Shown here: positions 33,343 to 56,513 of the stretch, one piece after another
Layout: each line of letters starts with the position of its first letter
Position numbering within the stretch: the stretch's first letter is position 1
NCBI GenBank assembly: GCA_046484125.1
Contig: JAWOBX010000049.1
Span: 4,437 to 68,436 of the forward strand
DNA from: Dehalococcoidia bacterium
Lineage (GTDB): Bacteria > Chloroflexota > Dehalococcoidia > SZUA-161 > SpSt-899
DNA: 64,000 nt
Direction of reading: 5' to 3'
Notes under the pieces: model-generated
Seen by the model: only the letters and a program-made list of their open reading frames with translations
Databases searched by the model: none
Told to the model about the DNA's origin: nothing
Translations under genes and position numbers: made by a program

Positions 33343-34338
33343 TTAAGTTCCCAGCACCCTCGTTGCCGCCTCCTGGAATTCGTTGAACACCTCAGAATCA
33401 TATTTCTCTATCTCGCCCTTATCCGACAGGGTTGCCAGTTGTGGATCAAGCGGGATTTGCCCCAGTATCGGTGCGCCTGTCCTTGAAGCCATCTCTCCTA
33501 CCCTGCTCGGCCCGAATATCTCTACCTTGTTGCCGGTCTCCGGTACCAGGAAATAGCTCATATTTTCGACCAGGCCCAGTACAGGCACGCTCATTTGATT
33601 GGCCATATTTACCGCCTTACGTACAACCATCGCGGCCAAATCCTGGGGACTCATAGCTATTATCACGCCGGATAGAGGCAATGATTGCATCACGGTCAGG
33701 GGCACGTCAGCGGTTCCGGGCGGTAAATCCACTATAAGATAGTCAAGTTTACCCCAGAGCACATCCTCCCAGAACTGCGTGACTGATTTCCCAACCAGCG
33801 GCCCTCTCCAGATAACGGCATCATCCTCATTGGGAAGCAGGAGGTTTATCGACATGATCTCAATACCGCTTTTAGATGTAACAGGCAGGAGACCGTTATC
33901 ACTTCCACCTGGGCGTCCGTTAATACCGAACATCTTTGGTATGCTTGGCCCGGTGACGTCCGCATCAAGTATGCCCACGGCCTTTCCCTGTCTCCTCATA
34001 GCAATCGCGAGTAGAGCCGTAACCAGTGACTTGCCTACCCCTCCCTTCCCGCTCATCACCGCCACAACCTTATTGACTTTGTTGATATCCTTTGGAGTGG
34101 CCTGTTCAAAATCCACCGCGACCGCGTCGACACCCTCCAGGCCGGTCAGATTGTTTTGAATCTCGTTGCGCAGCCATTCCTGCACGTCAGAAGCCAGCGC
34201 GGCATCGGAGAGCGTTATCTTCATGCGGTTTTCCTTTATCTCAATGCTGCGCAGCAAATTCAACTGAGTAACACTGCGCAATACCGCTGGCACAAGTATT
34301 TCTTCCAGCTTCTGTTCGACCTGTTCTTTCGTAGCCAT
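33343..34338 (-). CDS. apbC: Mrp/ApbC-type Fe-S cluster carrier ATPase with N-terminal DUF59-like domain
   Basis: MSGKGGVGKS deviant Walker A; CxxC dimer-bridging motif region; start set at MATKEQ. Confidence 0.8.
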   Translation of the reverse strand: MATKEQVEQKLEEILVPAVLRSVTQLNLLRSIEIKENRMKITLSDAALASDVQEWLRNEIQNNLTGLEGVDAVAVDFEQATPKDINKVNKVVAVMSGKGGVGKSLVTALLAIAMRRQGKAVGILDADVTGPSIPKMFGINGRPGGSDNGLLPVTSKSGIEIMSINLLLPNEDDAVIWRGPLVGKSVTQFWEDVLWGKLDYLIVDLPPGTADVPLTVMQSLPLSGVIIAMSPQDLAAMVVRKAVNMANQMSVPVLGLVENMSYFLVPETGNKVEIFGPSRVGEMASRTGAPILGQIPLDPQLATLSDKGEIEKYDSEVFNEFQEAATRVLGT

Positions 34339-39377: not shown

Positions 39378-39389
39378 TGGCCCCCTATA

Positions 39390-40357: not shown

Positions 40358-40406
40358 ACTGATCTGACCTCTCTCTGTATATGAGAAGACAATAGAATCG
40401 ATATTA

Positions 40407-41288: not shown

Positions 41289-41343
41289 TTTGATCGATAG
41301 TAGTCCTAATTATGTTTTCCTCTTGCCGAATAACACACTCGAA

Positions 41344-41802: not shown

Positions 41803-41826
41803 CTCTCCTCCCTGTTAACTGGAGCC

Positions 41827-42930: not shown

Positions 42931-42946
42931 TCCTGAAATATGTTAC

Positions 42947-43615
42947 CTATATGCGTTCGTACCATCTGGCGACATCATCCGGTGTGAAGGGACCGCCATG
43001 CCCCGGATAAATCACATTCGGATTGTGGTCCAGCAGGTGTTTGACGCTCTCTTTGAGGAGAGACCGGTCGACTTCAAAGGGTGGCAGATTGGGGTGATGG
43101 GGGCGAATTTTCCCAAAAAAACCTCCCATAATCAGGTCGCCTACAAAAGCCTCACCCGTATCAAGTATTACCGAAACAGACCCCCTTGTATGACCCGGCG
43201 TCAACAGGATTCCGCCACTTATTCCGTATTCACCCAGACTCATTTCATTTTCTATGACTAAATCAGGCTCAACCGGAGCTGTTTTTGTAGATCGCATGAA
43301 CAGTGGCATAAGCCGCGCTATTATACCAACAGGTTTGTCCATCCTGGATATACCCGTGCGCGTACAATCCGCATCTTCTGAATGTATGGCAATCTCCGCG
43401 CTTGTCGAACTTTTTAATGAGGAAGCTGATCCCATGTGGTCGAAATGACCGTGTGTGATTATGATCAGATTTGGCATAATTTCCATCTCTTGGCACTTGG
43501 AAATAATATCCGTTTCACCTCCTGGTAAGCCAGTATCGATCAACACCGCTTTTCCAAGTTCCTCTACGATATATGTATTGGCAAATCCTCTAACAGCAAC
43601 CCGTTCAATCCTCAT
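42947..43615 (-). CDS. MBL-fold metallo-hydrolase
   Basis: THGHFDHMG motif. Confidence 0.75.
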   Translation of the reverse strand: MRIERVAVRGFANTYIVEELGKAVLIDTGLPGGETDIISKCQEMEIMPNLIIITHGHFDHMGSASSLKSSTSAEIAIHSEDADCTRTGISRMDKPVGIIARLMPLFMRSTKTAPVEPDLVIENEMSLGEYGISGGILLTPGHTRGSVSVILDTGEAFVGDLIMGGFFGKIRPHHPNLPPFEVDRSLLKESVKHLLDHNPNVIYPGHGGPFTPDDVARWYERI

Positions 43616-43627: not shown

Positions 43628-44398
43628 TTATAACTGAGGCCTTCGACGAAGCGTCTGTTCCATGTTTACAGGTTCCACAGCAGGTTTTTGGGATTCGTAT
43701 ACCATGACCACCCGGTCACCGAGCTCCTTGAACTTAGACTTAATGGAAATCATCGTGTCCTCGGCCAGCGGCCGGACTGCGCATGGCCTGGTCGGCGTAT
43801 TGACTTGAACTTCATTCGGTGAAATGGCGGCTGCCAGTTCAGCCATGTCACTGACTCTGACATAGTTCTCCTCCATGAACATCATCTGCAGTGCCAGCCT
43901 GCCGGAAAACCGGCTCCTGAACTTCTTTATGCCTTCGATTATTCCATTCAACCGAATCCCTTCAACGGGCCGATTAACCATTTGGAACGTATGTTCATCC
44001 GGTGCATCCATTTTGGCTACAACAACATCCGCGCGTGACAAATCCCTCCTGACATCGTCAAGAGAGATCAGTGAGGAATTGGTCAATATCGCAACCGGTA
44101 AATCAAGTGTGTCTCTGACAAGTTGAATAGCATCACCAAGGTTAGATGCCAGCGTCGGTTCACCTGTCCCCGAAAAGGTGACAAAATCTGCCGCGATACC
44201 TTTTACTGATATCAACTCTCGAGCAAGCGTATCTATGGAAATATACTCTGACCTTCCAGACGCAAAAGCTTTCGTCTTACCCAGTTGGCAATAGATACAA
44301 TCGAAGGAACATGTTTTTCCCTCTTGAGAAATAAGGTCTACACCCAGAGACCTTCCCAATCTCCATGAAGCGACGGGACCGTATATAATCTCGTTCAT
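43628..44398 (-). CDS. Radical SAM protein
   Basis: CSFDCIYC (Cx3Cx2C) near N-terminus; GTGEPTL glycine-rich SAM motif. Confidence 0.75.
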   Translation of the reverse strand: MNEIIYGPVASWRLGRSLGVDLISQEGKTCSFDCIYCQLGKTKAFASGRSEYISIDTLARELISVKGIAADFVTFSGTGEPTLASNLGDAIQLVRDTLDLPVAILTNSSLISLDDVRRDLSRADVVVAKMDAPDEHTFQMVNRPVEGIRLNGIIEGIKKFRSRFSGRLALQMMFMEENYVRVSDMAELAAAISPNEVQVNTPTRPCAVRPLAEDTMISIKSKFKELGDRVVMVYESQKPAVEPVNMEQTLRRRPQL

Positions 44399-44428: not shown

Positions 44429-44809
44429 CTAACCCCATTTCTGAACCGTATAGCCTTTTGGCAGATGGGCAGTTCCTTTCACGCATGGGATACCCGTATC
44501 ATTGTGCACCCTTTCGATTATGCTGTCGATATCAGGGCAGAAACCGCCACCTTCCAGCTTCCAGCCCTGGTCCGTTTTATTGGCGAACGTGCAGGTGCAA
44601 AAGTGGATCACCTCAGCACCCTTTTGCTGAAGTATCCTGGCCAGTTCCGGGGTGGAGTCTCCGGGACAGTGACATGTAAAGACACCTGAAAGAGTACACT
44701 CATCATACATAGAGAAGCCCTCTTTTCGGCCTGCCAGACAAGCAAAACAGGCCGTCAATGGACACTGATCCATGTTCTTCTCGCATCTCATGATAGCTAC
44801 CTTCGCCAT
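44429..44809 (-). CDS. CGGC-domain protein
   Basis: AIMRCEKNMDQCPLTACFACL ... FTCHCPG ... IHFCTCTF pattern. Confidence 0.65.
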   Translation of the reverse strand: MAKVAIMRCEKNMDQCPLTACFACLAGRKEGFSMYDECTLSGVFTCHCPGDSTPELARILQQKGAEVIHFCTCTFANKTDQGWKLEGGGFCPDIDSIIERVHNDTGIPCVKGTAHLPKGYTVQKWG

Positions 44810-45187: not shown

Positions 45188-45934
45188 CTACCTCGCCCAG
45201 TGAACGATTTCAAGCAACTTCGCCGGGATAAGCCCTCCCGCCAACCCGACATATTTCCGAATAAGCGCACCGTGTGATTTCGGCTCAAAAGAAGGGAGCC
45301 TTTTCATATCAGGACTCTGGTGTATTTCCTTGATTTTTTGCAGTAACTCAAGATTTCCGCCCCTTCTCTCGATTTCTCTCCACACACAGTCCCTTTGGGT
45401 ATCCAAGGTGCATTCCACACCATCTTCAGGCGCTTTACTGCAAGGCCCGTACAGGCTTCTTGCCGGACATAAAGCAACTGGACATATACCTGCCGTGTAA
45501 GAAATCACACAGTGGCCGCACGATTTGCAAAGTGACTCCGCTATCATATCGCCTTCATAATCACCAGGATGAACCAGGCTGGATGCACCGACCGTGTCGC
45601 ACGCTGCGATGACCGGGATTCCGGGTTCGCACAGGATGGCAGATTTAACTCCTGCAGCGCAGCTAATAACGATAAGTTTGTCTGTATCGGATTTACGCAA
45701 AACAGACTGCTGTGCCTGTTTCATAATCGGTTGAGGGCAGCATGCGGCTATCGTCTTTGAGGCGGTTACCTTGTTTCCCCACCCCTCCACAAGCCCCTTT
45801 ATGAAGTTCATTCCCCTCACACCACCCACATCACATAAATTGGCGCAAGCCCCGCATGATATGATGGCTACGTTATCGTTTTCGCCTATTGAAAATCTCA
45901 ACTCCTCTGCCGATTTGTACCTCGTCTCGATCAT
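45188..45934 (-). CDS. Cysteine-rich Fe-S protein resembling the MTHFR C-terminal domain / MetV family
   Basis: CGACANLCD, CKSCGHCV...GICP motifs; 248 aa; no metF nearby. Confidence 0.45.
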   Translation of the reverse strand: MIETRYKSAEELRFSIGENDNVAIISCGACANLCDVGGVRGMNFIKGLVEGWGNKVTASKTIAACCPQPIMKQAQQSVLRKSDTDKLIVISCAAGVKSAILCEPGIPVIAACDTVGASSLVHPGDYEGDMIAESLCKSCGHCVISYTAGICPVALCPARSLYGPCSKAPEDGVECTLDTQRDCVWREIERRGGNLELLQKIKEIHQSPDMKRLPSFEPKSHGALIRKYVGLAGGLIPAKLLEIVHWAR

Positions 45935-46136: not shown

Positions 46137-46598
46137 CTATCTTCTCCTGTATGCTTTCTTCCACGGCTCGCGCTTCATCTTGAGGTAATCCTTGATGGCC
46201 TCTTTTATCGCATTGGCTGCCAGCGCAGCGCAATGCTCGTTCTCCTCCGGTAAGCCATCAAGTGATTTCAACACGTCCTGTTGTCCTATCCTTTGCGCTT
46301 CAGCTAGGGGCTTGCCCTTGGCCATCTCAGTGATGACGCTTCCACATGCGATCGTGCTGGAACACCCATCCGTCCAGAATCTTGCATCACGTACAACGTC
46401 ATCTTTAACTTTCAACCATATCTCCATGGAATCCCCGCATGAGCCAAGCGCGCCGCCATACCCATCAGCAGCAGGCATTTCGCCCACATTGCGTGGATTC
46501 ATAGCGTGATCTATGGTCTTTTCCGAATATATCTTTCTGATGTCTTCCAGGACCATTTCCTGAAGCTCTTGCTGGATCTGGTCGATATCTTTTTCCAT
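46137..46598 (-). CDS. IscU/NifU-N-terminal-like Fe-S cluster scaffold protein
   Basis: Three scaffold cysteines in GSCGDSMEIWLKV, DGCSSTIACGS, HCAALAANAIKEA. Confidence 0.75.
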   Translation of the reverse strand: MEKDIDQIQQELQEMVLEDIRKIYSEKTIDHAMNPRNVGEMPAADGYGGALGSCGDSMEIWLKVKDDVVRDARFWTDGCSSTIACGSVITEMAKGKPLAEAQRIGQQDVLKSLDGLPEENEHCAALAANAIKEAIKDYLKMKREPWKKAYRRR

Positions 46599-46764
46599 TT
46601 CTGCCTTTACCCACTATCAATTTTACGTCATATCAAGAGCAAACCTCTTTTATAATTTGCTTGAAATTCCAGATGACCTCTTGTTTCTCCACGTACGGGC
46701 TGAGTATTTGCTTTGTAACCACCTTACTTCAGTGCTGCAGTCTAATTACCAGATAATACAAAGA

Positions 46765-47103
46765 CTAGTGGTCGCATGTATTATCGCCCGTCTCCAGATT
46801 TCCCTTCAGATATTCCATGACTATCTCTTGCGGTTCCATAGAGGGTGCACCGATAACCACATGGATTCTGCTCTGCCAGAACAGGTCCTGTGCCCGTGTA
46901 CCCATACCGCCCGCAATGACTACCGAAACTCCCTGCTCGGCGAGCCAGCCTGGCAGAACCCCCGGCTGGTGTCCGGGAGAAGGAACAATCTCCTTACTTT
47001 TGACAACCTTGCTATCCTCATCCGCATCTACAAGTGCAAATGCCTGGCAATGACCGAAATGCTGATCAAGAACACCATCGCTTACAGGTATTGCGTATCT
47101 CAT
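46765..47103 (-). CDS. NifB/NifX/NafY-family dinitrogenase FeMo-cofactor-biosynthesis-domain protein (stand-alone)
   Basis: MRYAIPVSDGVLDQHFGHCQAFALV start typical of PF02579 proteins; 112 aa. Confidence 0.7.
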   Translation of the reverse strand: MRYAIPVSDGVLDQHFGHCQAFALVDADEDSKVVKSKEIVPSPGHQPGVLPGWLAEQGVSVVIAGGMGTRAQDLFWQSRIHVVIGAPSMEPQEIVMEYLKGNLETGDNTCDH

Positions 47104-47148
47104 CTTCCTCCTCTTTAATGCTGTGCATTATCTTAACTAAAATTACCG

Positions 47149-47394
47149 TCAGTTTTCATTCTTTCGGCATGTACCACCTGTGGAACAGGGTGGTGCGTCA
47201 CAACGCTCCTCTCTACCACAGCATGTCGTGCCTGATGTAGTAATCCCCGTCCTTATTGCATACGACTTGTTGAGGAGTCTTTCCACATTGGCGCTTCCAC
47301 AATCCGGACAGCTCACGCCACTGATATCCGAACTATGCAGCAACACCTCGGCTACCGCTCCGCAATCACTACACTTAAAATCGTATATGGGCAT
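47149..47394 (-). CDS. FmdB-family zinc-ribbon protein with Cys-rich tail
   Basis: MPIYDFKCSDCG...CPDCG; C-terminal TTCCGREERCDAPPCSTGGTC. Confidence 0.7.
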   Translation of the reverse strand: MPIYDFKCSDCGAVAEVLLHSSDISGVSCPDCGSANVERLLNKSYAIRTGITTSGTTCCGREERCDAPPCSTGGTCRKNEN

Positions 47395-47424
47395 TATTTC
47401 TCCATATCGCCAGAAATTTTTATT

Positions 47425-47634
47425 TCAGGCCCAGCTTCCAGGACGAATATATTTTGCCTTTTCCCCACCACCCCCATAGGCCATTCTCCAGTACCTGCAG
47501 ATCCTGTAAGTGCTGTTCTCAGGCTTAAAAGCTCCACAATGAGGACAGTATGGCGGGTCACCTTCCTCCTTACAGGGTTCAAGCAATTCAAATTCCTCAC
47601 CACATTTGTCGCACCGATATCCAAAAATAGGCAT
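47425..47634 (-). CDS. FmdB-family zinc-ribbon protein
   Basis: MPIFGYRCDKCGEEFE...CPHCG. Confidence 0.7.
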   Translation of the reverse strand: MPIFGYRCDKCGEEFELLEPCKEEGDPPYCPHCGAFKPENSTYRICRYWRMAYGGGGEKAKYIRPGSWA

Positions 47635-47695
47635 TATTCCCCTTTCTAGGTATCATAACTCACTGTCAGGACAGACCTGCCCTATCTCAAATTGC

Positions 47696-47884
47696 TCAAC
47701 CTCCTGAAGGGGCCGGAGCGCATCCGGTATCCGAGCCTCCGCTCCTCGCGAACACAGATACACTTCTCTCAGGACTCTCCTCCCCGCATCTGGGGCACTT
47801 GATCTCGGAATCATCGTCACTGAAGCGCCTCATCAACTCGAACTTGTGACCGCATTTGCTGCACACGTACTCATAAATCGGCAT
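47696..47884 (-). CDS. FmdB-family zinc-ribbon protein
   Basis: MPIYEYVCSKCGHKFE...CPRCG. Confidence 0.7.
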   Translation of the reverse strand: MPIYEYVCSKCGHKFELMRRFSDDDSEIKCPRCGEESPERSVSVFARSGGSDTGCAPAPSGG

Positions 47885-47895
47885 GACAGATCACC

Positions 47896-48756
47896 TCAAG
47901 ATGCTATTATTCTGGAGACCGATTGCCACATCGACTCCATTTGTCGGGCAACTTCTCCACTGGTGTATTCTATCACAGGTACACCTTTAATAAGAGCCTC
48001 CGTGATCACATCATCATATGGAATCCTGGCAACAACCTCAAGTCCAAGCTCCTGGCACGTAGACTCAATACTGGTGGTATTTTCTTCGCTCAGATCATAT
48101 TTGTTAATGCAAACCATAGCCGGGACGCCAAAATGTTTACAAACTCCAATGACTCTCTCAAGATCATGCATACCCGAGAGTGTCGGTTCGGTAACAACAA
48201 GCGCGGCGCTCGCGCCAGACAGTGATGAGATCACCGGACACCCGATGCCCGGCGGCCCATCGGTGATAACATAGTCAAGTCCCATCTCCTCACCCACCCT
48301 CCAGGCCTCTTTTCTTACCGTGCTCACCAGTTTACCGGAGTTCTCCTCGGCTATTCCGAGCCTGGCATGTACGAGCGGCCCATATCTGGTATCCGAAAAA
48401 TACCAGTGCCCTGAAAGGTTATCCTCCATTATGATGGCTTCCTCGGGGCATATGTGAGAACAAAAACCGCAGCCCTCGCAGAACGAAGGATTAACCGCAT
48501 AATCACTGATGGCATCAAACCGGCACATATCCTCGCATAGACCGCATTGCGTACATTTTTCCGGCTCTATTCTGGCGGTCTGACCGCTCCAGAATTCGTT
48601 ATCCTGTTTCCTGACCGGATCAAGCAAAAGGAATAGGTCAGCGGCGTCAACATCGCAATCGCACAGGACCTTATTATCCACGAGGCAGGCCAATCCGCCT
48701 ACTATACTGGTTTTTCCGGTACCACCCTTACCGCTGAGAACAACGACCTCTTTCAT
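47896..48756 (-). CDS. MinD/ParA-family P-loop ATPase with inserted 2x[4Fe-4S] ferredoxin domain (MinD-Fer)
   Basis: SGKGGTGKTS deviant Walker A; CTQCGLCEDMC and CEGCGFCSHICP insert; start set at MKEVVV. Confidence 0.75.
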   Translation of the reverse strand: MKEVVVLSGKGGTGKTSIVGGLACLVDNKVLCDCDVDAADLFLLLDPVRKQDNEFWSGQTARIEPEKCTQCGLCEDMCRFDAISDYAVNPSFCEGCGFCSHICPEEAIIMEDNLSGHWYFSDTRYGPLVHARLGIAEENSGKLVSTVRKEAWRVGEEMGLDYVITDGPPGIGCPVISSLSGASAALVVTEPTLSGMHDLERVIGVCKHFGVPAMVCINKYDLSEENTTSIESTCQELGLEVVARIPYDDVITEALIKGVPVIEYTSGEVARQMESMWQSVSRIIAS

Positions 48757-49013
48757 TCCGGCACCTTCGCCCAAATCCGAAATACCCTCTCGCCGTCACG
48801 CTCATAACAGGCCAATCCCGCTGGATCCACCTCTTCTACCTCAATATCCCCGTCCCCATACACTTCCCTGAACTGTTCCAGCCAGTTACGAAAGTGAGAG
48901 CCACCTCCGAAATAGACTTTTCTCCACATGTTACCTTCTCTATCGGCTCTCTCTCTGATCGCTTCTTCACGTGCTATCCATTCAGGGGCGCAAGCCTCGC
49001 TCTCCATTAACAT
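48753..49013 (-). CDS. Small hypothetical protein between the two MinD-Fer genes
   Basis: 86 aa, acidic; overlaps both neighbours by a few codons (translational coupling). Confidence 0.4.
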   Translation of the reverse strand: MLMESEACAPEWIAREEAIRERADREGNMWRKVYFGGGSHFRNWLEQFREVYGDGDIEVEEVDPAGLACYERDGERVFRIWAKVPE

Positions 49014-49849
49014 ACCCCCTGTTTTATTCCCTCATAAAGAGCACAAAATCTCTCTTTCCATTCGGGTTTACCTGTAACAAGCGGAACACCCTTCGCGTAC
49101 ATCCTGGCGATATCCATATCCAGAGGTATCTTCATCATCACAGGGATGCCCTTCGAGTGACAATATTTTTCGACGTTAATGTCACCATCACCGCTACGAT
49201 TAATAACCACACCGCGTGGTATCTTCAGGGTGGCGATCGCGTCAACCGCCAGTTCAAGGTCATTGAGGCCGAAAGGTGTAGGGTCAGTAACCAGCAGGCA
49301 GAAATCGCTTCCCTTAACCGCTTCAATAACCGGGCACGATGTGCCGGGCGACGCATCGATAATGGTGATATCCTCACCACCAACGCATTTCTTCACCTGC
49401 CGAATAACCGGAGGTGCCATAGCCTCCCCTACATTGAGCACACCCTGAGCGAATTCTATTCCACTGGCTCGGCCCTTCTCGATCTTCCCGATTGCCCTTG
49501 GCTCTTCTGTAATGGCCTTTTCCGGACACAGATAACCGCATGCTCCACACCCATGGCAAAGCTCATGAAAAGTCATCACCGTCGTCTTCAAAACCGCGAG
49601 GGCATTGTACGCGCATACATCCGCGCATAAACCACAATGAGTGCAAGCATTTTCGTCAATTACCGGAACAGGAATTACGGCGACTTCGCTCTCAACAAAC
49701 TCAGGCCGCATAAATATATGGTCGTTCGGCTCCTCGACATCACAGTCGAGGAGTTTTACCCGGTAACTTCCCGAAAGCGACAGCGCCAGGCTGGTTGCTA
49801 CCAGTGTCTTTCCTGTACCGCCTTTTCCACTGGCAACCGAGATTATCAT
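49007..49849 (-). CDS. MinD/ParA-family P-loop ATPase with inserted 2x[4Fe-4S] ferredoxin domain (second MinD-Fer)
   Basis: SGKGGTGKTL; CTHCGLCADVC and CHGCGACGYLCP. Confidence 0.75.
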   Translation of the reverse strand: MIISVASGKGGTGKTLVATSLALSLSGSYRVKLLDCDVEEPNDHIFMRPEFVESEVAVIPVPVIDENACTHCGLCADVCAYNALAVLKTTVMTFHELCHGCGACGYLCPEKAITEEPRAIGKIEKGRASGIEFAQGVLNVGEAMAPPVIRQVKKCVGGEDITIIDASPGTSCPVIEAVKGSDFCLLVTDPTPFGLNDLELAVDAIATLKIPRGVVINRSGDGDINVEKYCHSKGIPVMMKIPLDMDIARMYAKGVPLVTGKPEWKERFCALYEGIKQGVC

Positions 49850-49850
49850 C

Positions 49851-50078
49851 CTATTCTCTCACCATGGCCGTACTGCATTTCGGGCAACTGATTTCGGTGC
49901 ACGGTGTTCCCGGCTGATGCGGAACTCTCTCACCACAGCTCGGGCAAACGCAATTACCCCCAGGCCCCATTCCCGGTCGACCCATTTGCCCACTCTGCCT
50001 CTTTTGCCCTTTGCCTCTCATTCCTCTGCCCGTCCCCGGGCCCTTTCCAGTCGGTCCTGTTCCATCACCTCTGGGCAT
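49851..50078 (-). CDS. DUF5320-like small protein with C-terminal zinc ribbon
   Basis: N-terminal MPRGDGTGPTGKGPGTGRG matches the DUF5320 start motif; CVCPSCG...CPKC ribbon. Confidence 0.55.
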   Translation of the reverse strand: MPRGDGTGPTGKGPGTGRGMRGKGQKRQSGQMGRPGMGPGGNCVCPSCGERVPHQPGTPCTEISCPKCSTAMVRE

Positions 50079-50107
50079 TATTCCACTCCTTTTGCCATAC
50101 AGGCAAT

Positions 50108-50608
50108 CTATTTGATTCTTTTCTCCAGATCATTTATCCGCGAGATCATATCATCCATCTGCCGTTTCATTGAGTCGGCCCTGCTCTTTAAATCTTCGAT
50201 CTCAGTGCTGGCATTGCCGGCATACCCGACATCTCCAGCGTTCTTCCCTATACCCGCGTGCGCCCCCACCGTGGGACCGTGCGCAACATTCATGCTTCCT
50301 GATTTATAACGCTCAACCGCTTCTTTTACGCTGCCGGAAACACCGGTCAGTATTTCAATTCCCGCCTGGGCGAGAACCCGGTGTGCGTTCGGGCCAATAT
50401 TGCCGGTCAACACCGCCTGTACTCCCCTGTTGGCAACAACCTGGGCGGTGGCAATACCAGCTCCTCCGCCCGCCGAGCTATCGGCATTATTGTGCGCTTC
50501 GTATTCCATGTTTTCGGTATCTACAAATATAAGGTACTGGCATCTTCCAAATCTGGGATCCACTTCTGCGTCAAGTGTCTGGCCTTTAGCTGAAACTGCT
50601 ACTTTCAT
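50108..50608 (-). CDS. NifB/NifX-domain protein with C-terminal DUF5320-like Gly-rich/coiled-coil tail
   Basis: MKVAVSAKGQTLDAEVDPRFGRCQYLIFVDTEN (PF02579-like); tail ...EIEDLKSRADSMKRQMDDMISRINDLEKRIK. Start set at MKVAVS, not the upstream track Met. Confidence 0.6.
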   Translation of the reverse strand: MKVAVSAKGQTLDAEVDPRFGRCQYLIFVDTENMEYEAHNNADSSAGGGAGIATAQVVANRGVQAVLTGNIGPNAHRVLAQAGIEILTGVSGSVKEAVERYKSGSMNVAHGPTVGAHAGIGKNAGDVGYAGNASTEIEDLKSRADSMKRQMDDMISRINDLEKRIK

Positions 50609-50830
50609 CAATCCTTCCTTTTTCAATTTATGGAGTTTTATTTGGCGTACCTGTTCAGGCAAACTCATGAGCAAATTTTCCGGCATCAAACATGGGAATT
50701 GCGAACATAGGTACGACATTCAAATCCACAAACTTGCCACCTGTTCATGAGTCCTCACTGAATTTATGATACTCCTCTATCATCAAAGATATACCAATCC
50801 TTATATCCAGTCAAACAGTAATTTCCCTTC

Positions 50831-50886
50831 GCTAACGGCGGGAACTACCCCGAAGGTAAATCCCCGCCGTTAGCTTTCTTTTTTGT
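50831..50886 (+). terminator. Strong hairpin (12 bp perfect stem) plus T-run, intrinsic-terminator-like in the plus-strand sense, inside a minus-strand gene cluster
   Basis: gctaacggcggg-aactaccccgaaggtaaat-cccgccgttagc followed by tttcttttttg. Confidence 0.5.
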
Positions 50887-50937
50887 TCAATGGCCCGCTA
50901 ATCCAGTACACATCTAACAGCTTATTGAAAAGTCATA

Positions 50938-51270
50938 TCAACTCTGGTTTTGCTGCAACTCTTTTATTCTGGACTCGATATCCTCGAGTTCTTCCTTTAT
51001 GGCCTGCGCCTGATTTTGTAGCATATCCATTTCCTGCTCCCGGCTCATGGCAGGCGGGGCATACGCTGTATCATACGGTGCGCCATATGCCGCACCGTAT
51101 GCTGGGCCTCTCCAGCCCATCCCCCGGCCACGCCCGAATCCAGGGCCGCGTCCAAATCCTCGGCCTCTGCCAAACCACCCTCTTCCCGCTCCCCAGGGAT
51201 TGCAGAAACCTCTTCCTCCGCCGGTCATGGGTCCCATGCCGAGCGGTCCTGTTCCATCAAATCCTGGCAT
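50938..51270 (-). CDS. DUF5320-family protein: Gly/Arg-rich N-terminal region plus C-terminal coiled coil
   Basis: MPGFDGTGPLGMGPMTGGGRGFC start; GRGWFGRGRGFGRGPGFGRGRG repeats; C-terminal EQEMDMLQNQAQAIKEELEDIESRIKELQ. Confidence 0.6.
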   Translation of the reverse strand: MPGFDGTGPLGMGPMTGGGRGFCNPWGAGRGWFGRGRGFGRGPGFGRGRGMGWRGPAYGAAYGAPYDTAYAPPAMSREQEMDMLQNQAQAIKEELEDIESRIKELQQNQS

Positions 51271-51298
51271 TGCTTTTACCTCCTTTCCAAGATATTAT

Positions 51299-51598
51299 CT
51301 ACCATCGGTAGGGATTATTATATGGTCCAGTTGGTGCCGGCGCGGGTGGACCGTACATCGCACCCGGGTACCAGGCTCTTCCGGGTGCCCATGGATAAAT
51401 CCTGCACATCCTGCCCCGGCCGAAACCGCGTCCCCATCCACCCCCGAAACCTCTTCCACGACCCATTCCGAGTCCTCGACCGAAGCCTCTGCCCCAGCCA
51501 AAACCCGGACCGGGGCCCATACCGTACCCGGGGGCCCATCCAAAGCCACCGCCCCAACCGAACCATCCTCTTCCTTTTCCAAACGGCATTTCCATCAC
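51299..51598 (-). CDS. Gly/Arg/Trp/Phe-rich low-complexity protein (paralogous to the DUF5320 Gly-Arg region)
   Basis: FGKGRGWFGWGGGFGW...GRGFGRGLGMGRGRGFGGGWGRGFGRGR. Shares the GRGWFG motif with the neighbouring protein. Several overlapping ORFs on both strands here; frame chosen by operon orientation and paralogy. Confidence 0.45.
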   Translation of the reverse strand: MMEMPFGKGRGWFGWGGGFGWAPGYGMGPGPGFGWGRGFGRGLGMGRGRGFGGGWGRGFGRGRMCRIYPWAPGRAWYPGAMYGPPAPAPTGPYNNPYRW

Positions 51599-51611
51599 CC
51601 CCTTTCGGGAT

Positions 51612-52277
51612 CTATTCCTTTCTTTTCAATTTGCTGTAGTATGAATCGGATAAATACAATCCAGCAGCCGGATTGTGACCGAATACTCTGTCTTTGGCAA
51701 TCAGCACCGTGACCGGTGCCTTACAATGCCTGAAGAACAGGGAATCATGCCCGACACACAGACCTACTGCGATATTGAAGTCCGTCTCTTCATCATTGAG
51801 TATCTGCGCCTGCGCTATTGGATTGCACATGGCCTCGCGTACATCCGGTCCGGCAATCTTCTGCTCTCTGGAGACCCCTATCTGTTCCTTGGGAACGGAA
51901 CCCGCTTTACAACAGACTGAAACCACATCGAATCCACGGTTCTCAAGTATATCTGTCAACGTTAGCGCCTCATTCCGCAGGCCAACACAGAATGCTATAC
52001 CGAGCCTCTTGTATCCCAGCTTCTTCGCGAACTGGGCAACCTCCTCAACCCTCGGATTGCGCGGAGTTCTTCCTTCCGGCAGATTCATATAACATTCATA
52101 TTCCTGAATCGAGGCTTCCTTCGCGAATTCCTTTGTCTCAGACTCTTCATATGTCTTCAGTGCCCTTTTTACAGCATCAGAATGCCTTACCATCGGGCAG
52201 TTCTCCGGCGCCTGGTTCGTTTCCTCACGATAGCACTTGAAACTCGAACACCTCGCGCAATCCGTTTTCATCTCCAT
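51612..52277 (-). CDS. DUF1847-like cysteine-rich metal-binding protein
   Basis: MEMKTDCARCSSFKCY ... FCVGL ... VCCKAG ... CVGHD pattern. Confidence 0.5.
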   Translation of the reverse strand: MEMKTDCARCSSFKCYREETNQAPENCPMVRHSDAVKRALKTYEESETKEFAKEASIQEYECYMNLPEGRTPRNPRVEEVAQFAKKLGYKRLGIAFCVGLRNEALTLTDILENRGFDVVSVCCKAGSVPKEQIGVSREQKIAGPDVREAMCNPIAQAQILNDEETDFNIAVGLCVGHDSLFFRHCKAPVTVLIAKDRVFGHNPAAGLYLSDSYYSKLKRKE

Positions 52278-52306
52278 TTCTATTCCTTACCTTAATTATT
52301 GCCTTT

Positions 52307-52783
52307 TTACCTTCGCCATCCTCTGCCCCTTCGTCTTCCACCCCTTATTTGTCGCCTGGCACCGGCAGCAGGCGGAGCCGGCTCCGAATACGGCTTCTGG
52401 CACCTTGGACATAAACTTAAATCCTCATGATCTACCATATCCAGCGGAACCTCCCATTCATGTCCATCCCAGTCACACCTCAACCTTCGCCGCTGAACCT
52501 CAAAATTGCCGCCTCCTATCCTTATTGCCTTGCCCATCGTAAGGGCCTCAGCCACCTTGGCACGGGCGGAACCAAGCACCCGGTGAAAAGTAGGCCTCGA
52601 TATTCCCATCCTGCTGGCACATTCCTCCTGTTGCAGTCCCTCTCTATCCTTAAGCCGCATCGCTTCCAGCTCCTCAAACGAGAGTGAAATCTCTTCAATC
52701 GATCGGATTGGTATTCCGGCCGGCTTGAAATGAGTGGCCTCAGGTACGTAACCAACGCGCCTTCCTTTTACTGGTCTTGGCAT
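52307..52783 (-). CDS. DUF134 (UPF0251) putative DNA-binding regulator with C-terminal zinc ribbon and Arg-rich tail
   Basis: MPRPVKGRRVGYVPEATHFKPAGIP...LSFEELEAMRLKDREGLQQEECASRMGISRPTFHRVL matches DUF134 consensus; CDWDGHEW...CPRCQ. Confidence 0.7.
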   Translation of the reverse strand: MPRPVKGRRVGYVPEATHFKPAGIPIRSIEEISLSFEELEAMRLKDREGLQQEECASRMGISRPTFHRVLGSARAKVAEALTMGKAIRIGGGNFEVQRRRLRCDWDGHEWEVPLDMVDHEDLSLCPRCQKPYSEPAPPAAGARRQIRGGRRRGRGWRR

Positions 52784-52972
52784 ATTCTCAACATCTCCAT
52801 TATGGACATACGTCCATAATAATGTTATCACCGGCATGTCCACATGTCAATCTGATGATAATAAAATGATTTCAGCTAAAAGGATATTGCATTCAAACGC
52901 CGATGTAAGTGGTAAAGCTTCCAATTGCAATCCTCAATTTGCTCATGTAACATTTTTATGCGGGATGTATTT

Positions 52973-55259: not shown

Positions 55260-56192
55260 CTAAATCTTCGCCCCACACTTTCCACAGAACTCGAAATCAC
55301 TGGGGATATGTACCGCTCCACAGCCTGAACATTTCTTGGTAGGCGGACCGAATTCGTATTCCGAGGGTATACCAGCGGCGTCTCGCTCCCTGAACCTCAT
55401 CCATTCGGCTTTGCGCTGGTCGACAAAGGCCGAAGTTCCCTCCATCATCTCAGCGGTATTGGCAACGTGAATCGCCCAGAAATCCCTCCCCTGCATCAGC
55501 ACTGTCGAGGATATATCATGCCAGAAGTTGAGCTGGGTCTTGGTGTACCGGATGGCCCACGGGAATTTGTTTATAAGGGTTTTACACAGCTTATCGACTT
55601 CTTCATCCAGCTGGTCGAACGGTACAACTTTATTGACTATACCCCAGTCAAGCGCGGTTTGCGCGTCGATGCGATCATCAGTCATCAGCAGCCAGCGGGC
55701 TCGCTTATCACCCATTATCATGGTAGCGAATTGAGTAGTGCCGATGGCGACGGCTCCAACGAAGGCCTCACCAGCAGTGAATTTCGTGTTATCAGCGGCA
55801 ATAGCCAGATCACAGAACACTAGCAACTCGAATCCTCCCCCGATAATCTGGCCAAAACAGCGTGCTACGACCGGCTTACCGCAACTCCTTATGGCGGCGC
55901 CCATCCTGGCGAAATCGCCAGTTAGCGCCAACCCTCCCATTGGGTCAGTACAGATATCCTCGTTTATTGCCTTTACATCAGCCCCGGCAGCGAACGCCTT
56001 ATCACCCGCCCCCGTCAGCACGATTACAGCGACCCGGCGATCATAACCAAGTTTGTCGAAAGCATCGGTCATCTCACGGAATACTTCGATTGTCAGGGCG
56101 TTGTAGGCCTTGGGTCGATTGATGGCAACTGTTGCCACCATATCCTTGATATCAACCAGAATTGAGTTATACGGGCCGTATTCCACAGCCAT
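55260..56192 (-). CDS. Crotonase-family enzyme (enoyl-CoA hydratase / MenB-like) with C-terminal zinc-ribbon extension
   Basis: LTGAGDKAFAAGADV, GGGFELL; C-terminal CSGCGAVHIPSDFEFCGKCG; start at MAVEYG so it does not run into the tRNA. Confidence 0.7.
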   Translation of the reverse strand: MAVEYGPYNSILVDIKDMVATVAINRPKAYNALTIEVFREMTDAFDKLGYDRRVAVIVLTGAGDKAFAAGADVKAINEDICTDPMGGLALTGDFARMGAAIRSCGKPVVARCFGQIIGGGFELLVFCDLAIAADNTKFTAGEAFVGAVAIGTTQFATMIMGDKRARWLLMTDDRIDAQTALDWGIVNKVVPFDQLDEEVDKLCKTLINKFPWAIRYTKTQLNFWHDISSTVLMQGRDFWAIHVANTAEMMEGTSAFVDQRKAEWMRFRERDAAGIPSEYEFGPPTKKCSGCGAVHIPSDFEFCGKCGAKI

Positions 56193-56220
56193 GCAGAACC
56201 TCCTCAGAATCTTAGATTGG

Positions 56221-56296
56221 GCATAAAAAATCGGGGAGAGAGGATTTGAACCTCCGACCCCCTGCACCCCATGCAGGTGCGCTCACCAGACTGCGC
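56221..56296 (-). tRNA. tRNA-Pro (anticodon GGG)
   Basis: Cloverleaf read by hand on the reverse complement: acceptor CGGGGAG/CTCCCCG, anticodon stem CCTGC/GCAGG with loop ATGGGGT, T-arm GGAGG-TTCAAAT-CCTCT. Confidence 0.65.
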
Positions 56297-56438
56297 CACT
56301 CCCCGATGTAAAGCCAACTTATGTTACCATAGCCATGGAGGAAAATCCAAGCGTCGTTTAGTTATGTCAAGCGGCATCCTGAGGATTCTTGACTTCGAAG
56401 GTGCCAAGATGATATATTAACGTTCGTCCAAACCGCGT

Positions 56439-56513
56439 GGCAGCGTAGCTCAAAGGTAGAGCAGGGGACTCATAAGCCCAAGGTTACAGGTTCGACTCCT
56501 GTCGCTGCCACCA
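56439..56513 (+). tRNA. tRNA with CAU anticodon (Met or Ile2), CCA encoded
   Basis: GGCAGCG...CGCTGCC-A-CCA acceptor, D-arm GCTC/GAGC, anticodon loop CTCATAA, T-arm ACAGG-TTCGACT-CCTGT. The anticodon stem has G-A and A-G end pairs around three G-C pairs. Confidence 0.6.

Follow-up and report, generated by a model that had tools for sequence, protein, structure and literature searches.

Closest described systems

The closest described counterpart of the locus analyzed here is the ORP complex (Orp3, Orp4, Orp8, and Orp9) of Desulfovibrio vulgaris, an anaerobe-specific assembly of tandem two-[4Fe-4S] MinD-like ATPases with a PF02579 “orange protein” and a module of the Mrp/NBP35 type (PMC6345978, PMC8359166, PMC3897727). 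Orp3, Orp4, and Orp8 are recovered together on purification and, in vitro, accept Fe-S clusters from MrpORP, whose Di-Nase domain is the binding site of a [3Fe-4S] cluster (PMC6345978). A second point of reference is IssA, a thioferrate storage protein in which the PF02579 domain bears a Gly/Arg/Trp tail that is cationic and has been proposed as the thioferrate-binding part; MTH1175 was placed in its clade (PMC5524996). The orange protein of Desulfovibrio gigas holds a non-covalent [S2MoS2CuS2MoS2]3- cluster, which is Mo-Cu-S and not Fe-S (PMC6345978). When Palaeococcus pacificus grows on sulfur, the most induced genes include SipA/IssA, another PF02579 gene, and two annotated “CobQ, iron-sulfur cluster binding” (PMC6981617); we read the latter annotation as denoting MinD-Fer homologues.

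Gene content and layout of the locus

A stretch of 64,000 nucleotides from a Dehalococcoidia bacterium (the window) holds the following features, given in order of transcription:

52822..52850, minus strand: promoter-like site TTGACA-17-TAACAT with TG, before the DUF134 gene
52801..52818, no strand: perfect palindrome TATGGAC-N4-GTCCATA, candidate operator, just downstream of the -10 element
52307..52783, minus strand: DUF134 (UPF0251) helix-turn-helix regulator (Pfam DUF134 E 2.6e-21, 76.5 bits)
51612..52277, minus strand: DUF1847 protein, 8 Cys and 2 His invariant (Pfam E 5.8e-61, 205 bits)
51299..51589, minus strand: Gly/Arg/Trp-rich protein, probable gene, no Pfam match
50938..51270, minus strand: DUF5320 protein (Pfam E 5.8e-27, 95 bits)
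50831..50874, minus strand: hairpin with a 16-bp stem and no U-tract after it, between the DUF5320 and NifX-tail genes
50786..50814, minus strand: second promoter-like site, TTGACT-17-TATCTT, consensus match only
50108..50608, minus strand: orange-protein/MTH1175-type PF02579 protein (86 bits) ending in a DUF5320 C-terminal helix (the NifX-tail gene)
49851..50078, minus strand: protein joining a DUF5320 N-terminal motif to a Cys-rich zinc ribbon through a basic Gly-rich linker, its gene 1 nt away from that of the first ATPase
49007..49849, minus strand: MinD/Mrp-type ATPase A of the Orp3/Orp4 type, into which a 2x[4Fe-4S] ferredoxin domain is inserted (CbiA/ParA and 2xFer4 profile matches)
48753..49013, minus strand: 86-aa acidic Trp-containing protein, overlapping both ATPase genes
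47896..48756, minus strand: MinD/Mrp-type ATPase B, paralogue of A with the same architecture and profile matches
47696..47884, minus strand: FmdB-family zinc ribbon 1 (Pfam Zn_ribbon_8 E 7e-17; NCBIfam TIGR02605, 70 bits)
47425..47634, minus strand: FmdB-family zinc ribbon 2 (profile searches)
47149..47394, minus strand: FmdB-family zinc ribbon 3, with a Cys-rich tail (profile searches)
46765..47103, minus strand: stand-alone PF02579 protein of the MrpORP C-terminal (“Di-Nase”) type (72 bits), with HFGHC and C-terminal CDH motifs
46137..46598, minus strand: IscU/NifU_N-type Fe-S scaffold with the CGD, C, HC ligand set (Pfam E 1.1e-34, NifU_N 120 bits; also NCBIfam)
45188..45934, minus strand: DUF5981 (MTHFR C-terminal-like) Cys-rich protein, syntenic in the related loci L001 and L005
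44826..45185, minus strand: J-domain protein with an Arg-Gly/Cys-rich tail (Pfam DnaJ E 3.9e-25)
44429..44809, minus strand: CGGC-domain protein, also in 8 related loci
43628..44398, minus strand: radical-SAM protein, recurring in the cluster in 25 of 84 loci
33343..34338, minus strand: Mrp/NBP35-type P-loop protein (Pfam ParA/NUBPL E 7.8e-91)

All 14 co-oriented minus-strand genes that the sequence-only reading had placed at 46137-52843 exist in the ORF listing, and its domain assignments stand after small corrections by profile searches. Its “short gaps or overlaps” describe the core well, where start and stop codons overlap or lie 1 nt apart, but two gaps are longer: 329 nt between the DUF5320 and NifX-tail genes, holding a strong hairpin and a promoter-like site, and 166 nt between the stand-alone PF02579 gene and the IscU gene. 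Nor does the locus end at 46137, as had been proposed, since the co-directional cluster runs on into the DUF5981, J-domain, CGGC, and radical-SAM genes, which are syntenic in relatives. Every gene from about 30.8 to 52.8 kb lies on the minus strand, so that co-orientation by itself says little. The DUF134 gene probably starts at ATG 52783, which we prefer because the promoter-like site overlaps the GTG ORF start; the probable starts of the NifX-tail gene, the second ATPase gene, and the Gly/Arg/Trp ORF are ATG 50608 (RBS AAGGAAGGA), ATG 48756, and ATG 51589, respectively.

The locus shares with the D. vulgaris ORP complex the MinD-Fer tandem, an orange-protein-type PF02579 protein, a PF02579 protein of the MrpORP C-terminal type, and an Mrp homologue; orthology of the ATPases to DVU2103/DVU2104 is taken from architecture and synteny rather than from direct sequence comparison. 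The core had been called undescribed, a description that its match in composition to this complex contradicts (PMC6345978, PMC8359166, PMC3897727). The designation of the locus as metallocluster handling is well supported, because all assignable proteins are Fe-S- or metal-binding and the genes are co-conserved in Bacteria and Archaea. Among the window ORFs scanned we found no nitrogenase, hydrogenase, or CODH gene, as had been noted.

Conservation across genomes

Across more than 15 bacterial and archaeal phyla, the ATPase pair recurs with PF02579 genes in the 84 loci retrieved, a set of best-scoring matches in which relatives of the query are therefore over-represented. ATPase A precedes ATPase B in 82 of these 84 loci, and in a set of 38 loci with sufficient flanks, the pair is accompanied by an orange-protein-type PF02579 gene in 34 and by the second PF02579 type in 32. 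Anchoring on DUF5320 gave a similar picture, with MinD-Fer genes in 22 and PF02579 genes in 23 of 28 metagenome loci of at least 5 kb. Whichever anchor is used, the same order is seen in many phyla and both domains: DUF134, DUF5320, PF02579, DUF5320-zinc ribbon, ATPase A, ATPase B, zinc ribbon, PF02579, (Mrp), IscU. This clustering is far beyond chance.

DUF5320, DUF134, the FmdB ribbons, IscU (35/84 loci), and the radical-SAM gene are recurrent, lineage-dependent accessories. A DUF134 homologue comes first in the cluster in 25 loci from genomes and in 15 of the 28 centered on DUF5320. The DUF5320-zinc-ribbon type, counted in the genomes with a profile built in this analysis, occurs in 35 genome loci and in 17 of the 28 from metagenomes, as a rule immediately ahead of the ATPase pair. 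DUF1847 recurs next to the pair mainly in archaeal loci. The acidic 86-aa protein, without a family match in profile searches, is restricted to Dehalococcoidia-type loci (L001, L002, L005, L006, L007, and two metagenome loci), and J-domain homologues with a like tail occur in L001, L005, and L063. The window Mrp lies 12 kb downstream, while relatives carry its homologues inside the cluster, as L003 does (E 1.7e-130 between the two). The CXXC motif, which carries the transferable cluster in MrpORP, is missing from the sequence of the window Mrp.

PF02579 proteins, cationic proteins, and ATPases

The protein at 50108..50608 matches 1eo1 (E 9e-20) and 2wfb (E 3e-19) over its full length, its best PDB match being MTH1175. 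Of the “DUF5320-like tail” previously assigned to it, the last 30 residues hold (hhalign probability 88%, E 3e-6) and the remainder found no support. In 22 ORFs from other loci, spanning six phyla, this helix is likewise fused to PF02579, and three proteins have a PF02579+DUF5320 fusion that Pfam confirms. The stand-alone protein aligns with positions 265-365 of the 365-position NCBIfam MrpORP model (E 3.6e-35); its HFGHC and CDH motifs were read from the sequence and then compared with PMC6345978. Eight orange-protein-type proteins from MinD-Fer loci agree with the published criteria for IssA. The window homologue does not (pI 6.1, 5% Gly across the last 40 residues).

Homologues of DUF5320 fall into at least 4770 clusters. 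The protein at 50938..51270 comprises, by alignment, an MPGFDGTGPxGMGPMTGGGRGFC motif, an Arg-Gly/aromatic low-complexity stretch, and a C-terminal amphipathic helix. The neighboring Gly/Arg/Trp ORF, 99 aa if read from GTG 51598 (33 Gly, 11 Arg, 8 Trp, 13 Pro, 1 Cys; pI 11.4), has syntenic 75-aa homologues in L001 and L005, and its position, its conserved ends in these two relatives, and a weak third-position bias lead us to regard it, with moderate confidence, as coding. The 75-aa protein read earlier as “DUF5320 + zinc ribbon” matches at the N-terminal motif only, and its Pfam score of 21.6 bits is under the 27-bit threshold. A full-text literature search for DUF5320 returned unrelated papers only, in keeping with the view that the DUF5320 and Arg-Gly-rich components are uncharacterized. 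DUF5320 and the window Gly/Arg/Trp proteins (pI 10.8-11.4, 33% Gly, abundant aromatics, one Cys) share the chemistry of the IssA thioferrate-binding tail, a new comparison, and by analogy of composition DUF5320 may bind thioferrate. Also new is their tie to the orange-protein gene through the recurrent PF02579+DUF5320 fusions and the common C-terminal helix, as is the observation that Arg-Gly-rich tails mark the DUF134 regulator and the downstream J-domain protein too.

ATPases A and B are about 30% identical. Cys172 of switch II, like the eight ferredoxin Cys and Walker A (SGKGGTGKT), is 99-100% invariant across 81 A and 75 B paralogues; the presence of this ninth Cys in both is a new observation. 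By analogy, the MinD-Fer ATPases may resemble insertases of the NifH/CooC/ApbC type.

Regulatory sequences

L001 and L005 likewise have a TTGACw ... TGATAACAT arrangement ahead of their DUF134 genes, and in both the palindrome, present as a single perfect copy in the whole window, is kept as TTATGGACATATGTCCATAA. DUF134, which has a C-terminal Cys/His...CPxC element as well as its Arg-Gly-rich tail, may bind this candidate operator; a DUF134+PF02579 fusion is present in L038 (Pfam). The 126-nt segment bearing the hairpin folds at -45.3 kcal/mol (z = -4.8), and L001 and L005 have a different hairpin at the equivalent position. One such cluster, L085, is headed by a Fur-family gene, which we counted as a link to iron.

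Proposed function and alternatives

It is conceivable, if unlikely, that the locus is a MinD/ParA-type positioning or cell-division system, in which the ATPase pair patterns the cell and places the septum or a cargo, the disordered coiled-coil DUF5320 proteins are partners or adaptors like McdB for McdA or MinE for MinD, and the Fe-S clusters merely confer redox sensitivity. MrpORP is polar, Orp3 and Orp4 are reported with a MinD-like amphipathic helix (PMC6345978), to be compared with the C-terminal helix at residues 263-279 of the ATPase A model (AlphaFold, pLDDT 91.8), and loss of OrpR alters D. vulgaris cell morphology (PMC8359166). Both paralogues carry a deviant Walker A motif, and a disordered region with a coiled coil is the typical build of a ParA/MinD partner. 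Archaeal MinD and FlhG are the nearest solved folds, and McdA and ParA match as well, but ApbC, Cfd1, and ATPase-type HypB are just as close, and BchL is also among the nearest. An invariant switch-II Cys characterizes those members of this class that bind metals or clusters, not MinD; the constant neighbors are cluster-binding proteins and Fe-S scaffolds; MinC, MinE, FtsZ, and ParB families are absent from the 38 window ORFs scanned against Pfam; and the literature holds no confirmation of the division hypothesis.

More doubtful still is the handling of Mo/W (thiometalates), whereby PF02579 proteins and Arg-rich tails would bind anionic Mo/W-sulfide species for homeostasis or Mo/W enzyme maturation, assisted by the ATPases and the radical-SAM protein. 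PF02579 is a FeMo-cofactor-binding domain, L087 holds a MobB-like gene, and a molybdopterin oxidoreductase lies upstream in L003 and at 1157-3544 of the window, although the latter is 43 kb off. The best matches of the radical-SAM protein, a tungsten-cofactor maturase (E 3e-12) and MoaA (E 1.5e-10), are weak and far below cut-offs; no Mo/W transporter or moa/moe/mog gene was found in the examined clusters, where the partners that recur are IscU and Fe-S proteins of the Mrp type. The Mo-Cu-S cluster of the D. gigas protein favors this alternative, but the MrpORP Di-Nase domain, as isolated from D. vulgaris, binds [3Fe-4S], and IssA binds Fe-S (PMC6345978, PMC5524996). That unrelated small redox or metal-binding genes adjoin by chance on a strand-biased stretch is hardly credible: DUF1847, DUF5981, CGGC, and the acidic protein do occur in few related loci only, and the long minus-strand run weakens co-orientation as evidence, but the recurring gene order, the linkage of three families through domain fusions (Pfam), and the core's tight start/stop spacing contradict it.

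Several observations also weigh against Fe-S storage, namely the non-IssA-like window orange-protein homologue, the Mrp lacking CXXC, the Mo-Cu-S precedent, the absence of a cysteine desulfurase near IscU among the window ORFs scanned, and the ORP literature, which demonstrates no function for the complex and whose authors favor a role in cell division. On the observed gene content, conservation in Bacteria and Archaea, homologies (orange protein, MrpORP C-terminal domain, IscU), and PF02579+DUF5320 and DUF134+PF02579 fusions, we nevertheless lean, with modest confidence, toward a strict-anaerobe system of the ORP-complex type for binding, buffering, and handing on iron-sulfur material. The two PF02579 proteins would hold anionic Fe-S species, and the DUF5320, Gly/Arg/Trp, and DUF5320-zinc-ribbon proteins would act in trans as the IssA tail does in cis, wrapping and neutralizing an anionic Fe-S polymer such as thioferrate while pairing of the common C-terminal helix ties them to the orange-protein homologue. 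The ATPases may form an A/B heterodimer with two [4Fe-4S] clusters per subunit; where the subunits meet, the switch-II Cys could bind a bridging metal or cluster, by analogy with NifH or Mrp/Nbp35. Loading, remodeling, or release of what is stored would be brought about by ATP binding and hydrolysis in combination with electron transfer. Delivery of clusters to apo-proteins would fall to IscU, the J-domain protein, and the Mrp-like protein, and DUF134 would repress or activate the operon from the conserved palindrome beside the promoter. The most likely role of the locus would thus be the ATP- and redox-driven storage or traffic of iron-sulfur material.

Gene content of the array

All 14 minus-strand ORFs that a sequence-only reading had placed in 46137-52843 are present, and the families it had assigned to them were borne out by Pfam and NCBIfam.

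Features of the array, in order of transcription
52307-52783, minus strand: DUF134 regulator (Pfam/NCBIfam)
51612-52277, minus strand: DUF1847 protein (Pfam/NCBIfam)
51299-51598, minus strand: 99-aa Gly/Arg/Trp ORF, no above-threshold family in Pfam/NCBIfam
50938-51270, minus strand: DUF5320 protein (Pfam, 95.2 bits against a cut-off of 27)
50108-50608, minus strand: PF02579 protein, the orange-protein homologue (Pfam/NCBIfam)
49851-50078, minus strand: 75-aa protein, DUF5320 at 21.6 bits (N-terminal motif only, below the cut-off of 27)
49007-49849, minus strand: ATPase A, CbiA/ParA ATPase with an inserted 2x[4Fe-4S] ferredoxin domain (MinD-Fer)
48753-49013, minus strand: 86-aa acidic protein, no above-threshold family in Pfam/NCBIfam
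47896-48756, minus strand: ATPase B, same architecture as ATPase A
47696-47884, 47425-47634 and 47149-47394, minus strand: three FmdB zinc ribbons
46765-47103, minus strand: second, free-standing PF02579 protein (Pfam/NCBIfam)
46137-46598, minus strand: NifU_N/IscU protein (Pfam, 119.7 bits)

Three starts should probably be shifted, that of the DUF134 gene to ATG 52783, that of the orange-protein homologue to ATG 50608 and that of ATPase B to ATG 48756, and the Gly/Arg/Trp ORF probably begins at ATG 51589. This small low-complexity ORF is probably coding, although the openness of its frame is uninformative on the matter because the antisense frames are open too. The tight packing claimed for the array is found at most junctions, which are short or overlapping, but not at two of them: a 329-nt spacer, which contains a hairpin and a promoter-like site, separates the DUF5320 gene from the next gene, and 166 nt lie upstream of the IscU gene. 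The tight co-directional array also runs beyond the end originally given to it, into genes for DUF5981, J-domain, CGGC and radical-SAM proteins. At 35300-43615 (minus strand) the co-directional array goes on with three metallo-beta-lactamase-fold proteins, a nitroreductase, a DUF4125 protein and several family-less ORFs; a HdrD/TfrB-like CCG-domain Fe-S protein (41827-42930) and a ferredoxin-domain protein (40407-41288), both on the minus strand, also lie farther along the array.

The IscU protein has its complete ligand set in translation (GSCGD, DGCSS and EHC, that is, three Cys, Asp and His), and no aminotransferase class V protein that could be an IscS/NifS-type cysteine desulfurase was found among the window ORFs of at least 350 aa. 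The earlier statement that the window holds no nitrogenase gene stands, since the nifHDK/nifENB families are absent from the 38 scanned ORFs, which include every ORF of at least 350 aa. The only Mo/W enzyme seen in the window is a formate-dehydrogenase-like molybdopterin oxidoreductase with a NuoG-like Fe-S N-terminus (1157-3544, minus strand), about 43 kb from the locus and noted together with a NuoF-like flavoprotein (6706-8631, plus strand). Comparison with PDB sequences gave no meaningful relatives for DUF134 or DUF1847. In DUF1847 proteins (51612-52277 and the copies in the relative loci L058, L080, L082, L076, L029 and L015), eight Cys, arranged as an N-terminal CxxCx4C...C group plus four more, and two His are invariant; in archaeal loci the gene lies immediately upstream of the ATPase pair. 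The 86-aa acidic protein contains Trp, and its gene overlaps the two ATPase genes by 7 nt and 4 nt; it is confined to Dehalococcoidia-type loci, with more distant versions in L006 and L007 that carry CxxC motifs.

Correspondence to the ORP complex

The "anaerobe-specific" orange protein (ORP) complex of Desulfovibrio vulgaris Hildenborough includes the similar MinD-like proteins Orp3 and Orp4, both with a pair of [4Fe-4S] ferredoxin motifs, the PF02579 orange protein Orp8, the further component Orp5, and Orp9/MrpORP, in which a Mrp/NBP35 domain is fused to a PF02579 "Di-Nase" domain (PMC6345978, PMC8359166, PMC3897727). Judged from its predicted proteins, the core of the locus matches this complex by composition. 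Both comprise a pair of paralogous MinD-like ATPases encoded side by side and bearing two [4Fe-4S] ferredoxin motifs each (49007-49849 and 47896-48756 in the window), a single-domain orange-protein homologue, to which the window copy adds a C-terminal tail, a PF02579 domain like that at the C-terminus of MrpORP, with HFGHC and CDH motifs, and a Mrp/NBP35-type protein, and both are restricted to anaerobes. They differ in organization, as the window has one co-directional array headed by a DUF134 regulator, whereas D. vulgaris has two divergent sigma-54 operons with the sigma-54 activator (enhancer-binding protein) OrpR. Moreover, MrpORP is split in the window, where the Di-Nase domain is a separate 112-aa protein and the Mrp gene lies 12 kb off, and the window adds DUF5320 and Gly/Arg/Trp proteins, three FmdB ribbons, DUF1847, IscU and a J-domain protein.

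Residues 2-113 of the orange-protein homologue align with residues 6-119 of the D. gigas ORP (2wfb; E 3.2e-19), covering the whole globular domain, and its best PDB match is MTH1175 (E 9.3e-20). Against NCBI's MrpORP model, the second PF02579 protein aligns with positions 265-365 (E 3.6e-35); it carries HFGHC, a terminal CDH and a proline-rich SPGHQPGVLP segment resembling TPPPHXPGXXP, and HFGHC, CDH and TPPPHXPGXXP are motifs of the MrpORP C-terminal domain according to Pardoux et al. (PMC6345978). In relatives, a Mrp/NBP35 gene lies directly 3' of this second PF02579 gene, adjacent but unfused, and the Mrp/NBP35 homologue of the window (33343-34338, minus strand) matches the cluster-embedded copy of one relative locus (L003) with E 1.7e-130. 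The CXXC motif, which in MrpORP carries the transferable cluster, is missing from both the window protein (ENMSYFLVPETG) and the L003 copy. The N-terminal extension of the window Mrp is the counterpart of the FeS_assembly_P (DUF59) region in the cluster-embedded gene of L003 and L004, and Pfam returned no FeS_assembly_P match for it.

Proteins of the PF02579 fold family bind complex anionic Fe-S clusters non-covalently or via few ligands. NifX, NafY and the C-terminal domain of NifB belong to the same fold family, but the window proteins best match orange protein/MTH1175 and MrpORP rather than the solved NafY/NifX structures, and the window lacks nifHDKENB genes. Orthology of the ATPases to DVU2103/DVU2104 is presumed from architecture and synteny. 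That the locus proteins may form a physical complex is indirectly supported by their overlapping or 1-nt-spaced genes and by domain fusions in other genomes. Our literature search found no Orp papers later than 2021.

Conservation from two anchors

At E 1e-10 or better, the ATPase family numbers at least 8000 clusters. When one genome per species was scanned, with the two ATPase paralogues aligned as the query, 80 loci were retrieved, and profiles made from the window proteins were run against every ORF of the fetched loci. Bacterial sources were Chloroflexota, Acidobacteriota, Bacillota, Desulfobacterota, Omnitrophota, Ignavibacteria, Planctomycetota, Zixibacteria and Leptospirales; the archaeal ones included Bathyarchaeia, Methanocellaceae, Methanothrix, Methanohalophilus, Methanophagales, Altiarchaeota, Thermoplasmatota and Thorarchaeota. 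The fetched loci are the best-scoring hits, so that the following fractions are not unbiased frequencies: the A-then-B ATPase tandem is present in 82 of 84 loci and, among the 38 loci with enough flank, the pair is accompanied by an orange-protein-type PF02579 gene in 34, by the second PF02579 type in 32 and by DUF5320 in 18 (8/8 Chloroflexota, 9/22 other bacterial and 1/8 archaeal loci), while accessory genes in the same set are IscU (17), DUF134 (12), radical-SAM (13) and a third Mrp/MinD-like gene (18).

In the reverse direction, a DUF5320-anchored metagenome scan yielded 28 loci 5 kb or longer; 22 of them contain MinD-Fer, 23 PF02579 and 15 DUF134, typically in the gene order of the window. 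Three single look-ups were concordant, yielding two full clusters, one of them Fur-headed, and one isolated DUF134-DUF5320 pair. In the Fur-headed cluster (L085, 6469-11290), from a 3.4-Mb genome, the Fur-family regulator takes the place of DUF134; then come a DUF5320 protein whose N-terminal motif is duplicated, a small ferredoxin, two genes for PF02579 proteins and the ATPase pair. The co-occurrence proposed for these families is thus seen in both the ATPase-anchored and the DUF5320-anchored scan, and this conservation from both anchors marks the genes as one conserved unit which, going by gene content, is composed of a fixed core and lineage-dependent accessories. The alternative that the genes are co-located by chance is contradicted by the conservation and is excluded.

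The MinD-Fer ATPase pair

ATPases A and B, both of CbiA/ParA plus 2xFer4 architecture, are about 30% identical. An NCBI protein from a Dehalococcoidia MAG has 100% identity to ATPase A. Across 81 A and 75 B paralogues, the deviant Walker A (SGKGGTGKT), the switch I DxD and the eight ferredoxin cysteines are 99-100% invariant, and so is a ninth cysteine, Cys172, in switch II (PG[TI][SG]CP); for Cys36 the figures are 98% in A and 59% in B. The signature lysine in the Walker A implies that the protein dimerizes in a nucleotide-dependent way, as is established for this class of ATPases. The constant pairing of the two genes and the reported co-purification of Orp3 and Orp4 suggest an A/B heterodimer, in which, by analogy with NifH or Mrp/Nbp35, we infer that the switch-II cysteines might lie opposite one another and bind a cluster or metal.

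The AlphaFold model of the ATPase is confident (pLDDT 91.8), and its nearest solved folds are archaeal MinD, which gave the top Foldseek matches, FlhG, ApbC, Cfd1, ATPase-type HypB and BchL, a mixture that leaves the choice between a MinD-like and a Mrp/HypB/NifH-like function undecided by fold alone. With the SIMIBI ATPases (NifH/BchL, Mrp/Nbp35/ApbC/Cfd1, CooC and ATPase-type HypB) the window proteins share the deviant Walker A with its signature lysine, a close predicted fold and a conserved switch II cysteine, possibly at the dimer interface. They differ from them in carrying a complete 2x[4Fe-4S] ferredoxin domain inserted after switch I, in being always encoded as an A/B paralogue pair, and in lacking the CXXC (Mrp), CXC (CooC) or NifH Cys97-equivalent motif. 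SipB of Thermococcales was not equated with a MinD-Fer ATPase, its annotation being merely "ATPase C-terminus."

DUF5320, Arg-Gly-rich proteins and the likeness to IssA

DUF5320 (PF17253) counts at least 4770 sequence clusters and is built of a near-invariant N-terminal MPGFDGTGPxGMGPMTGGGRGFC motif, a low-complexity stretch of Arg-Gly and Phe/Trp/Tyr, and a C-terminal amphipathic helix. The disordered parts of the three DUF5320/Gly-Arg-type proteins of the window (51299-51589, 50938-51270 and 49851-50078) have a pI of 9.6-11.4, and the 99-aa ORF contains 33 Gly, 11 Arg, 8 Trp, 13 Pro and one Cys. By comparison with the published C-terminal tail of IssA (SipA, PF2025), the thioferrate Fe-S storage protein of Pyrococcus furiosus, these cationic proteins have the same chemistry (PMC5524996): a cationic Gly/Arg/Trp/aromatic low-complexity sequence with a single Cys and a pI of about 11. 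The globular domain is also alike, being PF02579/IPR003731 of the MTH1175 type, and Vaccaro et al. put MTH1175 in the IssA clade (PMC5524996). In the window, however, the cationic sequence is on separate polypeptides and not on the PF02579 protein, and neither the conserved N-terminal motif nor the C-terminal helix of the DUF5320 proteins has been described for IssA. IssA binds thioferrate and forms nanoparticles; by analogy of composition, the window proteins may bind thioferrate as well.

[quoted passage not shown] Within it are eight orange-protein-type proteins inside the MinD-Fer clusters of relatives. What the tail of the window homologue carries instead, in its last 30 residues, is the DUF5320 helix (hhalign 88%, E 3e-6). 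A profile of this helix, used because a strict regular expression overlooked most cases, detects it fused to PF02579 in 22 ORFs of other loci, from Chloroflexota, Acidobacteriota, Desulfobacterota, Clostridia, Methanobacteriota and Nitrososphaeria; Pfam itself calls PF02579 together with DUF5320 in three of them. These gene fusions suggest that proteins of the DUF5320 type are physically linked with PF02579 proteins.

Arg-Gly-rich segments are a mark of the locus. Only four ORFs of the 64-kb window reach five or more RG/GR dipeptides per 20 residues, namely the DUF134 protein (in its tail), the two Gly/Arg proteins and the J-domain protein (in its tail), and the counts for the genome loci are listed below. 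A DNA-repeat artefact as the origin of the Arg-Gly-rich genes was ruled out, the only repeat being an 18-nt unit present 2.3 times.

ORFs with an Arg-Gly-rich segment in the genome loci
DUF5320: 40/60
DUF5320-zinc ribbon: 27/36
Orange-protein type: 23/82
DUF134: 9/26
J-domain: 4/6
All other ORFs: 56/8101

Candidate regulatory elements

Upstream of the DUF134 gene, a promoter-like TTGACA-17-TAACAT with TG is directly followed by the palindrome TATGGAC-N4-GTCCATA (52801-52818), the sole perfect copy in the window. In three Dehalococcoidia genomes this palindrome (TTATGGAC-N4-GTCCATAA) comes right behind the -10 element of the promoter of the DUF134 gene, the two relatives having it at about 7541-7560 of L001 and about 2589-2608 of L005, and the conserved arrangement is a phylogenetic footprint of a candidate operator. 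DUF134, whose helix-turn-helix is sigma-70 region-4-like, is the obvious candidate for its binder. In another relative locus (L038, 665-1462), Pfam finds a DUF134 helix-turn-helix and a PF02579 domain in one polypeptide, which suggests that DUF134 regulators can sense a ligand bound by the carrier proteins.

Between the DUF5320 and orange-protein genes lies a hairpin with a 16-bp stem and no U-tract (50831-50874, minus strand; z = -4.8), and in L001 (about 8870-8905) and L005 (about 3895-3930) different hairpins occupy the equivalent position. Possible roles are those of an intercistronic attenuator or a processing/stability element; the hairpin may also give the two halves of the operon unequal expression. 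The sigma-54 -24/-12 pattern gave chance-level matches in the window and none upstream of the cluster. Rfam finds only two tRNAs in the window, hence no riboswitch. These are tRNA-Pro(GGG) and tRNA-Met(CAT), divergent at 56230-56513; the stop-to-start ORF 55260-56267 overlaps the tRNA-Pro gene, so that its true start is probably further downstream.

Proposed function and alternatives

On the basis of homology, composition, fusions and synteny, we lean towards the locus encoding an iron-sulfur storage and trafficking system. In such a system, the PF02579 domains and the cationic DUF5320-type proteins would hold anionic Fe-S material, the Fe-S-containing ATPase heterodimer would couple ATP and electrons to its loading or release, IscU, the Mrp-like protein and the J-domain protein would pass clusters on, and DUF134 would govern expression. 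Independent support comes from Palaeococcus pacificus grown on sulfur, in which SipA/IssA, a second PF02579 gene and two genes annotated as "CobQ, iron-sulfur cluster binding" are among the top-induced (PMC6981617); we read the annotation of the latter two as that of MinD-Fer homologues.

The original authors favored another role for the ORP complex, in MinD/ParA-type positioning or division, and both the fold and the polar location of MrpORP fit it. The window ATPases do combine a deviant Walker A with a MinD fold and, as in McdA/McdB and MinD/MinE, adjoin small proteins with a disordered charged region and a coiled coil. They differ from those systems, however, in their Fe-S domains and conserved cysteine and in having neighbors that bind clusters. 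The NCBIfam models minD_arch and minD_bact score 59-63 bits against cut-offs above 200, MinC/MinE families are absent from the scanned neighbors, and no division or cargo genes were identified near the ATPases; we regard such a role as unlikely. A part in handling Mo/W-thiometalates, for which the Mo-Cu cluster of the D. gigas orange protein would be a precedent, seems rather improbable to us: radical-SAM, MobB and molybdoenzyme neighbors give weak hints of it, but uptake or cofactor genes for Mo/W are absent.

Beyond the storage and trafficking system that we favor, it is tempting to speculate that the DUF5320 and Gly/Arg/Trp proteins and the orange-protein homologue build a thioferrate-like storage body, that is, a mineral-protein particle or a condensate, which the ATPase heterodimer would assemble and dissolve in a redox-sensing manner. 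The Arg-Gly tag would then recruit DUF134 and the J-domain protein to it, so that gene expression and the delivery of clusters would follow how full the store is. We think this elaboration a long shot; if true, the ORP complex, long unexplained, would turn out to be the ATP-driven machinery that Fe-S storage of the IssA type has so far lacked, and that machinery would occur across anaerobic Bacteria and Archaea.

The core of the locus cannot be called undescribed, because it has the composition of the published ORP complex, and the IssA principle is published as well. In the searchable literature we did not find the assignment of DUF5320 as a free-standing counterpart of the IssA tail that is tethered by a helix, its reciprocal conservation with the ORP-type ATPase pair, an Arg-Gly tag common to regulator and co-chaperone, the invariant switch-II cysteine or a DUF134 operator, and full-text searches on DUF5320, DUF134/UPF0251 and COG1149/COG1433/COG1342 returned nothing relevant. 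Taken alone, the window is a modest result, a well-preserved Dehalococcoidia instance of a widespread cluster. Strict anaerobes depend heavily on Fe-S enzymes, and how they store and distribute iron and sulfide is poorly known; the literatures on the Desulfovibrio ORP complex and on Pyrococcus IssA each describe some of these genes but offer no mechanism. The data on conservation and gene fusions join these two strands and add to them the large uncharacterized DUF5320 family, providing a hypothesis for the function of the ORP complex, in which a MinD-type Fe-S ATPase pair would act on IssA-like cationic carriers.
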